Shown here: positions 59,902 to 64,000 of the stretch, piece by piece
How positions within the stretch are numbered: the stretch's first letter is position 1
Layout: every line of letters starts with the position of its first letter
Sequence record: OR896157.1
DNA: 64,000 nucleotides
Strand: one strand, 5' to 3'
DNA from: a phage
Notes under the pieces: generated by a model
The model's database searches: none
Told to the model about the DNA's origin: nothing
The model's input: the letters and a program-made list of their open reading frames with translations, nothing else
Translations under genes and position numbers: made by a program

Positions 59902-60113
59902 TATGATTTCCTGCATTTAATGAGAGCATTGTAAAGACGGCGCGTAAATTCAATATTAGCTTCACGACCAATGCGAGATAAAAAGTTTTTAGTCATATCA
60001 TCATATGACTGTTTTAGCCCAGTCGTAATATTATCAACGGCTTCATTATAACCGTCTTTACGAGCTTTGGCTTTAGCTTCTTCAAACTCTTCAAGAGTCA
60101 TTGTGATTTGCAT
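59901..60113 (-). CDS. hypothetical early protein (frd.1-like position)
   Basis: 70 aa from internal ATG with GAGG Shine-Dalgarno; TAATG overlap with frd. Confidence 0.45.
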   Translation of the reverse strand: MQITMTLEEFEEAKAKARKDGYNEAVDNITTGLKQSYDDMTKNFLSRIGREANIEFTRRLYNALIKCRKS

Positions 60114-60191
60114 TAACCTTGCCTCATTCCGCATTTGATACAACGACCACCAGCAAACATCAGATTAGTCCCGCAATACTTGCATTCCCAA

Positions 60192-60515
60192 TCAGAAAGA
60201 ATTCGAATCATAACCAGCAGCCCTTACAAGACGACGCATCATTTCCATTCCATCTTCAACAGCACCAGCGAGTTCTTCAAATGCAGTTTTAGTGAAGATG
60301 AAAGCCGCACCTACTTTCTGACGCTGAAGATAACCGTTGATGATTTGGTCATCCAGCGGGAAGGTGCCATATCCAGTTTCAATTATGCCTGACACTCGGT
60401 TACCACGGGAGTGTGGGTCATACTCCATAGTAATCCAAGATACACCTGGAAAATTCTCAAACTGACAACGTACTTTAACTTTAGGATATGCAATTGAGTG
60501 AATATCGTTAGACAT
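60192..60515 (-). CDS. hypothetical early protein
   Basis: 107-aa ORF with TAATG overlap upstream. Confidence 0.55.
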   Translation of the reverse strand: MSNDIHSIAYPKVKVRCQFENFPGVSWITMEYDPHSRGNRVSGIIETGYGTFPLDDQIINGYLQRQKVGAAFIFTKTAFEELAGAVEDGMEMMRRLVRAAGYDSNSF

Positions 60516-60799
60516 TATTTTGGCTCCTTTTTAGCAATTTTCCAGGCAGCTTTGAAAGCTTCGACTTCAGAAATTTCAATCCAAAAACCGCTACCAAAGC
60601 CATCGTTATAGCAGGGACAGCCATCGCAGTAATGGTCCCAAGTAAGTACCAGACCATCACCACGAACAGCACCAGTTTCCATTTCGCGAAGGCGGTCTTC
60701 AGCAGCTTCAATAGCTTCCGGGTCATTCCCTTCGATGATAAAGTACCACTTGCCATTGTATTCACTTCCGAGTTTAATTGATTGACGTTGAAGTTTCAT
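60515..60799 (-). CDS. hypothetical early protein with CDGCPC motif
   Basis: 94 aa from ATG (MKLQRQSIKLG...) with AAGGAG Shine-Dalgarno directly downstream of a conserved early promoter. Confidence 0.55.
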   Translation of the reverse strand: MKLQRQSIKLGSEYNGKWYFIIEGNDPEAIEAAEDRLREMETGAVRGDGLVLTWDHYCDGCPCYNDGFGSGFWIEISEVEAFKAAWKIAKKEPK

Positions 60800-60826
60800 T
60801 TTATTCTCCTTTGTTTTGATAGGGCT

Positions 60827-60856
60827 ATAGTAACACACCATAGCCCTGATGTAAAC
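60827..60856 (-). promoter_or_regulatory. T4-type early promoter
   Basis: Minus strand GTTTAC-N14-GTGT-TACTAT; -10 flanked by inverted repeat AGGGCTAT/ATAGCCCT. Confidence 0.55.
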
Positions 60857-60858
60857 GG

Positions 60859-61107
60859 TTAGTCGTCTACTTTTAGCAACTTTTTGAAAGCATCAAATGA
60901 TTTCATGTGCTTTGGTTCAAGATACACATGCTTAACCATCTTGCCTTCAAGGGAGAAGACTTCAACTACCATGTCATAACACTCGTCTTCAACGAGATGC
61001 ATGCATTTTGGAGTACAAGCTTTGTCAAACAACTGAACCAAGTTGTTGCCAGCCCAGATGTTTTTGCTGCCGTCATAGCTATAATCTTCAGAAAGAACAT
61101 AAAACAT
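60859..61107 (-). CDS. hypothetical early protein
   Basis: 82 aa from ATG (MFYVLSEDY...) with GGAG Shine-Dalgarno. Confidence 0.5.
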   Translation of the reverse strand: MFYVLSEDYSYDGSKNIWAGNNLVQLFDKACTPKCMHLVEDECYDMVVEVFSLEGKMVKHVYLEPKHMKSFDAFKKLLKVDD

Positions 61108-61120
61108 TTTAATCTCCAAA

Positions 61121-61134
61121 GGGCCCGAAGGCCC
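61121..61134 (-). terminator. GGGCC-UUCG-GGCCC hairpin
   Basis: Perfect stem between two minus-strand ORFs. Confidence 0.5.
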
Positions 61135-61139
61135 TATTA

Positions 61140-61412
61140 TTAAGCGGTGTAATCTTCCACCATTTCCATGATGTATTCATAATCTTCTTCGTCTTGGGCA
61201 TAAAAATCTTTAACCCAAAGACCAATGTCTACTTGATGACCAATTAATTTAATTTCTGGCCAGCCGCCGCCTTGACCACTTTCATTTACAACTTCAAATT
61301 TCAAACCACTAAATGGACTATTGAAACGAGAGCCGTCATCAAACTCTAAATCAACTACTTTACCGTTTTCTTTAACGAGATCGCATACAATGTCAATTAC
61401 AAGTTGTTTCAT
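61140..61412 (-). CDS. hypothetical acidic early protein
   Basis: 90-aa ORF downstream of a conserved early promoter. Confidence 0.55.
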   Translation of the reverse strand: MKQLVIDIVCDLVKENGKVVDLEFDDGSRFNSPFSGLKFEVVNESGQGGGWPEIKLIGHQVDIGLWVKDFYAQDEEDYEYIMEMVEDYTA

Positions 61413-61444
61413 TTTGATTTACTCTCTGTTGTTTTGATAGTGCT

Positions 61445-61474
61445 ATAATACCACATCCATGCGGTGATGTAAAC
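61445..61474 (-). promoter_or_regulatory. T4-type early promoter
   Basis: Minus strand GTTTAC-N14-GTGG-TATTAT. Confidence 0.5.
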
Positions 61475-61476
61475 GG

Positions 61477-61701
61477 TTAGTTGCAAATTTCAGAAATAGT
61501 GTCAGCCAAGAATTCGCCAGTTTCGTCAGCGCCTACGCAGTAAGATTCAGTTAAGAATTTTACAATTTTCTCACGAGGACCGAATACTTTGTATTCATAT
61601 CCCCATTCTACATCGCCTGCTAATTCACAGTTTAGACCGAATTTTTCAACTTCAGCTTCAAAATGTTCTTCATCTGCAACGCCGAGATAGATATGTGCCA
61701 T
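61477..61701 (-). CDS. hypothetical acidic early protein
   Basis: 74-aa ORF with GGAG Shine-Dalgarno downstream of a conserved early promoter. Confidence 0.55.
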   Translation of the reverse strand: MAHIYLGVADEEHFEAEVEKFGLNCELAGDVEWGYEYKVFGPREKIVKFLTESYCVGADETGEFLADTISEICN

Positions 61702-61733
61702 TTTGTTTTACTCCGTTTGGTTGGTGTAAGAGT

Positions 61734-61763
61734 ATAGTAACACAGCTTAAAGCGGATGTAAAC
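61734..61763 (-). promoter_or_regulatory. T4-type early promoter
   Basis: Minus strand GTTTAC-N14-GTGT-TACTAT. Confidence 0.55.
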
Positions 61764-61877: not shown

Positions 61878-62798
61878 TTACAGACCGTTCAGCAGTTCGT
61901 CGAGGTCTTCATCACCGCTGGAGGCAGAACCGCCAGTTTCCATGAAGTCTTCAGCCGGTGCTGATTTCTGAGAACCTGCGTTAAAGTTCGCGAGGTCATC
62001 TTCAAAGTTGTCCAGGTCTTCACCAACCTTATCAGCCTGGGCAGAAGCGCGAGACGCGGCAGTACCCATAGCAGATGTACCCATAACCTGAAGGAATTTC
62101 TTCTGGTTATCTTCGAAAGATTTGAACTGGTCTTTCGCAGTCAGAGTAGACAGGTCAACCATTTGTTCCTGCAGCTGTGCTTGATAAGCTTCATCTTCGA
62201 TGTTAGGAATCTCAGATTGGCCAAGGAACTTGGATTCATCGTAGTTGCTGAAACCAGATACTTTCTTAACTTTCAGAACGAAGTTAGCACCTTCAAACGC
62301 ACAAGTTACGTCGATTGGTGTTTCGCCCATTTCAACGTCAACGGCAACCATTGCATTGATTTTGTCCCAAATTTTCTTACCGAAACGATATTTGAAGACT
62401 TTACCTTCGTTTTCTGGAGCAGCCGGGTCTTTAACAACCAGGATGTTCGCGTAGTAAGAAGTTTTGCGTTTCAACAGCTTGTATTCTTCGTTGTTGGTGT
62501 TATATGAATCATTCTTGGACAGATATTGACATACTGGGCAAGAATCATAATCACCGTGGGTAGAAGTACAGTTTTCAATGTACCATTTACCACCTTTCTT
62601 GAAGCCGTGATTCACTAGAACAGCGAATGGTACGCCTTCATCACCTTTACCTGGCAGGAAACGGATGACCGCTTGACCGTTACCAGCATTATCCAACTTC
62701 AGTTTCCATTCACCTTTATCTTCGGAGTTAAAACCTTTAGAACCAGACAGGGAAGCCAGTTGGGAAGCCAGGGCAGCAGGATTTTTACGCTTAAACAT
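61878..62798 (-). CDS. 32: single-stranded DNA-binding protein gp32
   Basis: [13 protein letters not shown]...[23 protein letters not shown]...[12 protein letters not shown] closely matches T4 gp32; acidic C-terminal tail. Confidence 0.97.
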
Positions 62799-62873
62799 AG
62801 ATTTTTACCTTTTTAATATTGACAGTTGGTGCTGCAACGTTTGTCCTTGCAGCTGGACGACGAGATAATTATA

Positions 62874-63512
62874 TCAATGTATAATTAAAGCGTTCTTGAA
62901 TATCTGAAAATCTTTATCTAACTTAGGATTCCATCCATTCTTAAACATATTTATTATGCAATTTCCGGTTGTAGAAGTGCAATATTTACCAGTTTCTTTA
63001 CTCATTAAAACCGGGCCTAAACGAGAATGTCGATGAGGACCGAAATACCAATCATAATAAATTTCAGAATTCAGCCAGTATAAATGAGCATTCCTTTTTA
63101 TAGTATGTGGATGCTCCCATGGTTTAAGTCCCTTTAAATGAGAAGATTCTTTCATTTTAGACTTATGTTTTTCGGTCTTTGGAACTCCCTTTAAGCACGA
63201 TTTAAAAGTTCCTTTTGCTTGAGATTTATTGAAAAACATTTCTGATTTAACAACATTCCACTTAATGTGGAGCTCTTCTTCAATATCTAATGAAGAATCA
63301 CCTTCATATAAAATATGAACTTTTGGTTTTTCCAATTCAATAGCATCTAAAAATCTTTGTTGATAGCAAGAGCTCCAATATTCTTTACCAGATGAATCAT
63401 ATATTACATTGTTTTCAATATAGCATTCTTGTTTTGAACCGATATAAAAATATGGAGGAGTTCTTGCATTTAATCTTGATTCAAAGGTGAACCAATAAGT
63501 TACTCCTTTCAA
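62874..63512 (-). CDS. hypothetical protein at the gene 32 / gene 59 junction (T4 segG locus); possible free-standing endonuclease
   Basis: 212-aa ORF between 59 and 32 where I recall T4 carries segG; weak GIY..YIG-like N-terminus (GVTYW...YFYIGSK); ATGA overlap with the gene 59 stop. Confidence 0.5.
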   Translation of the reverse strand: MKGVTYWFTFESRLNARTPPYFYIGSKQECYIENNVIYDSSGKEYWSSCYQQRFLDAIELEKPKVHILYEGDSSLDIEEELHIKWNVVKSEMFFNKSQAKGTFKSCLKGVPKTEKHKSKMKESSHLKGLKPWEHPHTIKRNAHLYWLNSEIYYDWYFGPHRHSRLGPVLMSKETGKYCTSTTGNCIINMFKNGWNPKLDKDFQIFKNALIIH

Positions 63513-64000
63513 TACTTACAATCCTTAACAGTTTTAATAAATAACTGCTTTGCTTCTTCTCTATCTACATTCAATATCTTTCGATACGCATGCAACTTCG
63601 TAGAGTAGTTTGACCAAACTAAGTTATTGGTTGCAGTGTCATGTTTATCTATCAAATCCAGAAACGAGTCCAGAATTATAAAAGTCTCGAAAGAGATGAT
63701 ATTACTTTGAAGTAATTTGAATATGTATGACGAGTTAACCTTATCATTATAATCAAATAATTCATTAAGCGATTTAACTTCAACTTTCTTGCTGAAATAG
63801 TAAATATTGCGAACATCTTCTTCGAAGTTCGACTTGATTAATTTCAGCTTACCAATATATTCACGATAAAACACTAACGCATCTGCATCGGAAATTTCAC
63901 CAATCCAGGCGTCCTGGTTAGCTACCAGGTTACTGATGAATATCAAGGTCAATTCTTTTAATGTGTACTTCTCAGATAACTTCTTGAAGAAGTATTTGTC
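63509..64000 (-). CDS. 59: gp59 helicase-loading protein, C-terminal part (5' end outside window)
   Basis: LIFISNLVANQDAWIGEISDADALVFYREYIG...YIFKLLQSNIISFETF matches T4 gp59; frame stays open to the window edge. Confidence 0.88.
   Translation of the reverse strand, partial: DKYFFKKLSEKYTLKELTLIFISNLVANQDAWIGEISDADALVFYREYIGKLKLIKSNFEEDVRNIYYFSKKVEVKSLNELFDYNDKVNSSYIFKLLQSNIISFETFIILDSFLDLIDKHDTATNNLVWSNYSTKLHAYRKILNVDREEAKQLFIKTVKDCKY

Follow-up and report, generated by a model that had tools for sequence, protein, structure and literature searches.

T4 SegG is reported to cleave DNA at a distant site, hundreds of bp inside gene 32. The original SegG paper is reportedly that of Liu et al. 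(2003, J Mol Biol 334:13). Published experiments have established that this protein is a free-standing GIY-YIG homing endonuclease that is encoded between genes 32 and 59, that targets gene 32, and that causes T2 gene 32 to be excluded when T4 is crossed with T2 (PMC2988022 Table 1; PMC2330249; PMC535899). Site-specific cleavage and preferential inheritance have been reported for T4 SegG only (PMC2988022, PMC2330249).

In the current study, we describe the corresponding locus in a 64,000-nucleotide stretch of phage DNA (record OR896157.1, hereafter called the window) from a Karamvirus, a member of the Enterobacter phage lineage. Taken as a whole, the locus is very probably best explained as a SegG-family free-standing homing endonuclease gene residing in a mobile segment of approximately 700 bp. 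The ORF is a new member, from a new genus, of the known free-standing SegG family, and several related phages already have genes that bear this annotation. With respect to the gene itself, the finding is real but ordinary.

A segG-like ORF between genes 59 and 32

The ORF occupies positions 62874 to 63512 of the minus strand and comprises 212 codons and a TGA stop (62876-62874), which is exactly where a first-pass annotation of the sequence had placed a 212-aa ORF at the gene 59/gene 32 junction. It is flanked upstream by gene 59 (helicase loader; 63509-64000, minus strand, with its 5' end beyond the window and a TGA stop at 63511-63509) and downstream by gene 32 (ssDNA-binding protein; 61878-62798, minus strand), and it shares the orientation of both neighbours. 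The identities of these neighbours are taken from the annotation of CC31, PG7, KM16, SP18 and T4, wherein the annotated Karamvirus genomes used for the calls are 96-97% identical. The same position and orientation are found in T4, KM16 and SP18, where the gene is annotated as segG or homing endonuclease. That T4 carries segG at this junction, which the first-pass annotation had noted, is borne out by the T4 annotation and by PMC2988022. A series of small ORFs (74-108 aa) is also present downstream of gene 32 on the minus strand (60100-61750), at the position of the T4 frd.1-frd.3 region.

The protein had been called uncharacterised, a description that does not hold. PHROG 7504, whose label is 'homing endonuclease', matches it over its full length (E=4e-63), and relatives were detected by tblastn in 235 phage records, where the annotation segG or homing endonuclease is frequent. 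Two homology-search rounds gathered 38 sequences, and an exhaustive HMMER search yielded 265 cluster representatives at E<=1e-3. An HMM search of the 64-kb window for a second copy of the N-terminal domain found none. The best tblastn relative is encoded by Enterobacter phage EcL8g, a Karamvirus with an unannotated record, in which the protein is identical and the gene differs by two synonymous nucleotides. The next relatives by protein identity are those of KM16 (73.5%), MHG19 (66%) and SP18 (63%, annotated segG). Together with Potts1, these phages (KM16 from Salmonella, Moonvirus; MHG19 from Yersinia; SP18 from Shigella, Gaprivervirus; Potts1 from Klebsiella, Marfavirus) encode proteins that are 58-74% identical at the same gene 59/32 locus, but they belong to genera other than that of the window phage. 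None is a plausible direct donor, given that the best identity among them is 73.5%.

Alignment with T4 SegG (formerly gp32.1), a comparison that had been suggested from the sequence alone, gave 36% identity by BLASTP over 207 of 212 aa (E=6e-36). The ORF is thus a full-length SegG relative for which orthology is demonstrated. The two proteins have the same two-domain layout, and their genes share the locus of insertion and the orientation. The first 60 aa are approximately 70% identical, and both proteins carry the unusual N-terminal motif VYWFTFE-R...TPPYyYIGSK ... KEYWSSC ... E ... FN, as well as IVYWFTFEDRVKNKTPPYYYIGSK and the C-terminal PW and GW-x-P-x-x-D motifs. A four-way alignment that includes T4 SegG contains 57 invariant columns. 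In contrast, the C-terminal (DNA-binding) half is only about 20-25% identical to that of T4 SegG, and therefore the target specificity of the two enzymes may differ.

The reading that an ATG start codon overlaps the gene 59 stop was correct with regard to the overlap, but the start codon is TTG (63510-63512, minus strand), which overlaps the gene 59 stop TGA (63511-63509) as 5'-TTGA-3'. The end of gene 59 reads ...AAG TAT TGA, and the ORF begins TTG AAA GGA GTA ACT TAT TGG in the +2 register. No ATG or GTG is present in frame upstream of Tyr6 in the ORF sequence, and we assign the TTG because it is the sole possible start that retains this family-invariant residue. An identical TTG/TGA overlap is annotated for segG of SP18. 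The start is ATG in KM16 and in T4, where it lies one nucleotide after the stop, unlike the overlapping arrangement of the window. A Shine-Dalgarno-like AAGGA (63522-63526, minus strand) is located 9 nt upstream of the TTG, within the last codons of gene 59. The substitutions that create it are fixed differences between the segG-bearing phages and eight segG-less Karamvirus genomes. It would act as a Shine-Dalgarno sequence.

The GC content of the ORF is 31%, versus 45% for gene 32. Its dN/dS over the whole protein is 0.14 in comparison with KM16 and 0.08 in comparison with SP18, and thus the protein is under purifying selection. A short palindrome (TCCACATTAAGTGGA, 63257-63271, both strands) lies inside the ORF codons for L81-H-I-K-W-N. 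It was flagged as terminator-like and may be a chance occurrence.

A probable divergent GIY-YIG nuclease domain

The N-terminal domain (aa 1-100; 63213-63512, minus strand) would serve as the catalytic domain, with Y6, Y23-I-G25, S26, K27, Y45, S48, E78 and N95 as its characteristic residues. Modelling with AlphaFold2 from the 38-sequence alignment gave a mean pLDDT of 90.6, with an alpha/beta N-terminal domain, a low-confidence linker and an all-helical C-terminal domain. The N-terminal domain adopts the GIY-YIG alpha/beta fold, and its GIY-YIG structure matches include 9u75_A, T4 EndoII (2wsh_A), UvrC (1ycz_A) and Eco29kI (3mx4_A); matches in BFVD are to SegG, Gp32.1, GIY-YIG, SegD and SegE-like endonucleases. 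Foldseek against the PDB returned nothing below E 2.5.

The first-pass annotation had pointed to a weak GIY-YIG-like N-terminus, GVTYW-x13-YFYIGSK, that lacks the expected downstream Arg and His. Both observations are accurate. The strings G3-V-T-Y6-W7 and Y21-F-Y23-I-G25-S-K27 are present and separated by 13 residues, and no conserved Arg or His is found at the canonical spacing, 8-14 residues past YIG. Among 130 distant relatives, Y23, G25, Y45, S48 and N95 are invariant, and Y6, P20, I24, S26, K27 and E78 are at least 90% conserved; all of these residues are present in the window ORF. In the AlphaFold2 model, Y6 lies in a predicted strand (residues 3-9), Y23-I24-G25 lie in a second strand (22-27), and E78 lies in a helix (74-84), followed by the downstream Asn (N95) that accompanies the metal-binding Glu in GIY-YIG enzymes. 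The pattern of conservation fits a GIY-YIG active site, with E78 and N95 located where the Glu and Asn would be expected.

Comparison with the catalytic domain of I-TevI (PDB 1LN0/1MK0), the prototype GIY-YIG homing endonuclease, reveals both the likeness and the divergence. Y6, Y23-I-G25, E78 and N95 occur in the same order and in the same secondary-structure elements as Y6, Y17-V-G19, E75 and N90 of I-TevI, but the two domains share no significant sequence similarity. The spacing from the GIY-type Tyr to YIG is 17 residues rather than the usual 10-11, reflecting a loop that is six residues longer than that of I-TevI and that holds the near-invariant R13. In place of the I-TevI helix that carries R27 and H31, the ORF has a beta-hairpin insertion (aa 31-38) and the invariant Y45-x-x-S48. 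Candidate substitutes for the GIY-YIG Arg are R13, K27 and Y45/S48. T4 SegG likewise has no canonical Arg or His after YIG and, because it shares the motif, the 'weak' GIY-YIG motif is the signature of the SegG clade itself and no defect of the window gene.

Curated sequence models did not recognize the protein. No Pfam or NCBIfam model, including PF01541 and PF19835, matched the ORF even at E<=10, which we attribute to the sensitivity of the models; a match of this kind is not a defining biochemical feature. A sequence-profile search of the PDB found nothing beyond a chance match to isochorismatase (E 0.6). When family profiles were compared with I-TevI by hhalign, the catalytic domain was not significant and only a NUMOD3-like stretch aligned. 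A forced global hhalign comparison with a shallow I-TevI profile places the motifs sensibly in register, yet at a statistically unsupported probability of 0.6%. A search with the I-TevI catalytic domain retrieved only nine close relatives, too few to construct a bridging profile.

An alternative proposal held that an EGDSS...EEELHIK stretch marks the protein as a PD-(D/E)xK nuclease rather than a GIY-YIG enzyme. Its sole support is this local string in a single sequence (E70-G-D72-S-S ... E78-E-E-L-H82-I-K84). D72 and K84 vary freely in the family and no PD-(D/E)xK structure appears among the structure matches, which effectively refutes the proposal. An HNH reading was likewise rejected on conservation and fold. 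We therefore assign a negligible probability to the protein being a PD-(D/E)xK or HNH nuclease.

Linker and C-terminal module

A flexible linker (aa ~101-129; 63126-63212, minus strand; pLDDT 51-73) follows the GIY-YIG-like domain at the point where relatives switch C-terminal modules. The remainder of the protein (aa ~130-212; 62877-63125, minus strand) forms an all-helical domain that is presumed to be the DNA-binding module. I-TevI, which is intron-encoded, has a C-terminus composed of a zinc finger and a helix-turn-helix, whereas the free-standing ORF described here has a different C-terminal domain. NUMOD3 repeats are present in 90 of the 130 distant relatives, and the Pfam model SegE_GIY-YIG (PF19835) is touched by 19 of them, in all cases below the curated cut-off (best E 3.3e-4). 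The window protein matches neither of these features of Seg-like endonucleases. Its C-terminal module is also found behind other N-termini. This construction is of the modular kind that is typical of Seg enzymes.

A sister group composed of metagenomic sequences (P0010, P0012-P0022 and P0024) retains the SegG N-terminal domain at approximately 50% identity. In these proteins the C-terminal domain is exchanged for a zinc-finger-like module ending in C-x-x-C ... H-x-x-x-C, which is evidence of DNA-binding-domain swapping within the clade.

Sporadic distribution of a 700-bp segment

Approximately 30 Karamvirus records with 95-97% identity in the flanks lack the ORF, and for this reason they cover only 68% of a 2.1-kb query spanning the locus. 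Within Karamvirus, the ORF is carried only by the window phage and EcL8g. Such sporadic presence among close relatives is a signature of mobile elements. Eight segG-less genomes (CC31, PG7 and six more) were inspected base by base, and in all of them the junction reads gene 59 ...TGT AAA TAT TAA GG TAAAATCT ATG gene 32. The spacer between the gene 59 stop and the gene 32 ATG in these phages is 10-11 nt (positions 2422-2431 of sequence L005 for CC31). The gene 59 stop in the segG-less genomes overlaps the Shine-Dalgarno sequence (TAAGGT), and neither a leader nor a pseudoknot is present. Relative to these genomes, the window phage has approximately 700 bp of extra DNA, located at approximately 62808-63505, which corresponds to the ORF and a 75-nt leader.

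The 3' part of this leader (62811-62826; AACTGTCAATATTAA, AACTGTCAATATTAAAAAGG) matches the CC31 junction and gene 59 end (AACTGTAAATATTAA, AACTGTAAATATTAAGG) at 14 of 15 positions. The same window segment was also compared with window positions 63509-63520, in addition to the CC31 junction. The microhomology could represent the right-hand crossover point of an insertion or the end-point of a deletion.

A gene 32 operator pseudoknot downstream of the ORF

The 75-nt leader that extends from the ORF stop to the gene 32 ATG (62799-62873, minus strand) belongs to the extra DNA and is absent from the segG-less Karamvirus. It aligns with the T4 gene 32 operator. An H-type pseudoknot of the T4 type is located at 62831-62858 (minus strand). 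It precedes the gene 32 ATG by 60 nt, compared with 67 nt in T4. Stem 1 is formed by four base pairs between GUCC (62858-62855) and GGAC (62846-62843), and stem 2 by seven base pairs between GCUGCAA (62853-62847) and UUGCAGC (62837-62831), all on the minus strand. The architecture is that of T4, with a stem 1 of 4 bp, a single nucleotide, a stem 2 of 7 bp and a 5-nt loop. On its 3' side, the pseudoknot is followed by AAUAUUAAAAAGG and then the ribosome-binding site, such that an H-type pseudoknot precedes an unstructured A/U-rich stretch with UUAAA/UAAA repeats and a ribosome-binding site, as in a gene 32 operator.

Across four variants of the leader (window, JD18, Potts1 and T4), which is a small sample, all 11 pairs form and 6 of the 11 exhibit compensatory double changes. 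None of 500 shuffled controls reached the observed level, and slid controls gave 25-50% pairing. This covariation agrees with the experimentally defined operator of T4 and RB69 (PMC535899). The leader thus holds a T4-type gene 32 operator pseudoknot, a candidate site for gp32 binding. Plain minimum free energy (MFE) folding of the leader recovers only stem 2 (z -1.7); stem 1 is missed because pseudoknots are not modelled by MFE folding. An Rfam scan of 62600-63700 gave no family matching the gene 32 operator and nothing above threshold, with DUF2815 RNA as the best match (23 bits versus a 41-bit cut-off).

In both T4 and the window phage, the endonuclease gene is immediately upstream of the pseudoknot. 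However, the T4 pseudoknot overlaps the 3' end of segG (PMC535899), whereas that of the window begins 15 nt past the ORF stop. The earlier remark that a nuclease encoded here would be neighbouring the gene 32 translational operator was thus apt, as the operator lies in the same inserted segment. Potts1 has the same type of pseudoknot leader, and no comparable pseudoknot was found upstream of gene 32 in CC31 or RZH. If gene 32 autoregulation exists in the segG-less Karamvirus, it must work differently from that of T4.

A TATAAT-like box, TATAATTA, lies directly after the ORF stop (62866-62873, minus strand). In JD18 and Potts1, it is conserved as (T)ATATAAT, immediately on the 5' side of the pseudoknot. 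The window box departs from the T4 late consensus TATAAATA at a single position. On the basis of this resemblance to consensus sequences, it is possibly the -10 element of a gene 32 promoter or a late-promoter-like element. Scans inside the ORF, which also covered sigma-70 promoters and terminators, found no exact T4 late (TATAAATA) or MotA-box promoter, and embedded gene 32 promoters like those of T4 segG were not confirmed.

These signals bear on whether the ORF might be a domesticated or catalytically dead SegG remnant that is kept for gene 32 expression signals such as a promoter, a processing site or the operator leader. According to a review (PMC2988022), T4 segG tends to be retained on account of the gene 32 promoters embedded in it, and in the window the leader and its pseudoknot travel with an ORF that has a weak TTG start codon and lacks the canonical GIY-YIG Arg and His. 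Yet endonuclease activity is reported for T4 SegG, which has the same set of motifs (PMC2988022, PMC2330249), and the window protein retains every family-invariant residue, E78 and N95 included. Moreover, purifying selection acts over the whole protein (dN/dS 0.08-0.14), and the ORF is devoid of an exact T4 late or MotA promoter consensus. Given this balance, we consider a dead remnant to be quite improbable and favour a functional SegG-family nuclease.

A divergent gene 59 tail and the direction of change

The 3' tail of gene 59 (~63507-63660, minus strand) is locally divergent, and we read it as a co-imported tract resembling those left by co-conversion. Compared with CC31 and PG7, the body of gene 59 differs at 0-3 positions per 100 bp and gene 32 at 0-5, whereas the last ~150 bp of gene 59 show 12-13 and then approximately 23 mismatches per 100 bp. 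The tail is approximately 80% identical to that of every other Karamvirus. When the two segG-bearing phages are set against the eight segG-less genomes, 20 of the 21 fixed differences are located at 63507-63649, and the remaining one is in gene 32 (position 62040). Of the blocks in the window tail, GGATTTGATA also occurs in EnC07 and KMB17, and GAATGTAGATAGAG in RZH and COW86c. Only the segG-bearing phages have the final 42 bp of this tail. Because some of its variants are shared in blocks, the gene 59 tail is a recombination mosaic, and it looks like a set of overlapping old co-conversion tracts.

We infer that the foreign gene 59 tail, segG and the leader were acquired by recombination, as would be produced by intronless homing with co-conversion, and that the direction of change was gain rather than loss. 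The main rival to this interpretation is that the window arrangement is ancestral in Karamvirus and that the compact CC31-type junction derives from a deletion between near-repeats at the gene 59 end (TGTAAGTATTGA) and in the 3' part of the leader (TGTCAATATTAA). Such a deletion would be consistent with the resemblance, at 14 of 15 positions, between the CC31 junction AACTGTAAATATTAAGG and the window leader segment AACTGTCAATATTAAAAAGG. In addition, T4, JD18 and Potts1, which are other Tevenvirinae, have a leader, and so the leaderless junction is derived at some level. The compact junction, however, is found in all eight segG-less Karamvirus inspected, including the distant RZH/COW86c branch (88% identity), and a simple deletion leaves unexplained a gene 59 tail that is diverged by 12-23% from every other Karamvirus, between flanks that differ by 0-3%. 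Both the distribution of the compact junction and the foreign tail disfavour loss, which we regard as unlikely, and gain by homing is retained as the preferred interpretation.

Proposed mechanism and target site

In the predicted enzyme, the divergent GIY-YIG nuclease domain (aa 1-100) would be joined through the flexible linker to a DNA-binding domain of helix-turn-helix-like type at the C-terminus. Its translation is probably weak and coupled to that of gene 59 via the TTGA overlap and the Shine-Dalgarno-like AAGGA located 9 nt before the start codon. If it behaves as T4 SegG does, the enzyme would, during mixed infection with a relative that does not carry the ORF, cut the corresponding gene 59-32 region of that relative. 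The break would then be repaired by recombination with the segG-bearing genome, and the gene and its flanking markers would thereby be copied into the cut genome. The mobile segment of approximately 700 bp would thereby comprise the ORF and its 75-nt pseudoknot leader, with approximately 140 bp of foreign-looking gene 59 tail upstream.

One aspect of the T4 model does not transfer readily to this phage. Gene 32 of the segG-bearing phages is indistinguishable from that of their segG-less relatives, and therefore a T4-like target inside gene 32 would leave the carrier genome unprotected. On this reasoning, we predict a target at the junction or within the tail of gene 59. The fixed differences of the window phage are concentrated in the gene 59 tail rather than in gene 32, which hints at a nearby target, unlike the distant gene 32 site of T4 SegG. 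These sequence comparisons suggest that the target is near the end of gene 59 rather than inside gene 32.

A broader proposal is that the segment is a composite mobile unit that imports a gene 32 operator, in which case a selfish gene would be rewiring translational control, with the target at the gene 59 end or junction. This placement of the target follows from two features: the insert interrupts the compact junction, and only one of the fixed differences falls outside the gene 59 tail. We offer this proposal tentatively, as it is somewhat doubtful even though it is compatible with the arrangement of the locus.

Implications

For annotation, the finding is of routine value, and 'SegG-like GIY-YIG homing endonuclease', with a TTG start, is the appropriate label for the ORF. 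Of more general interest, the canonical GIY-YIG Arg/His helix is missing throughout the SegG clade, even from the biochemically active enzyme of T4, and the Pfam GIY-YIG models do not detect this clade. This pattern is useful for nuclease annotation and for understanding the catalytic plasticity of the superfamily.

The comparison between the window phage or EcL8g and the CC31- or PG7-type phages, whose flanks are 96-97% identical, provides a clean natural pair for the study of intronless homing outside T4 and T2. What is modestly novel is that the cassette brings an operator pseudoknot into a lineage that otherwise has none, and the polymorphism suggests a target near the insertion site. The homing cassette thus travels with the structured regulatory RNA of a neighbouring essential gene, and the pair makes the requirement for the pseudoknot in gp32 autoregulation directly accessible to study, in a genus that normally has no such structure. 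If the notion of an operator-importing cassette is true, then a selfish endonuclease gene would be rewiring the translational control of an essential replication gene.
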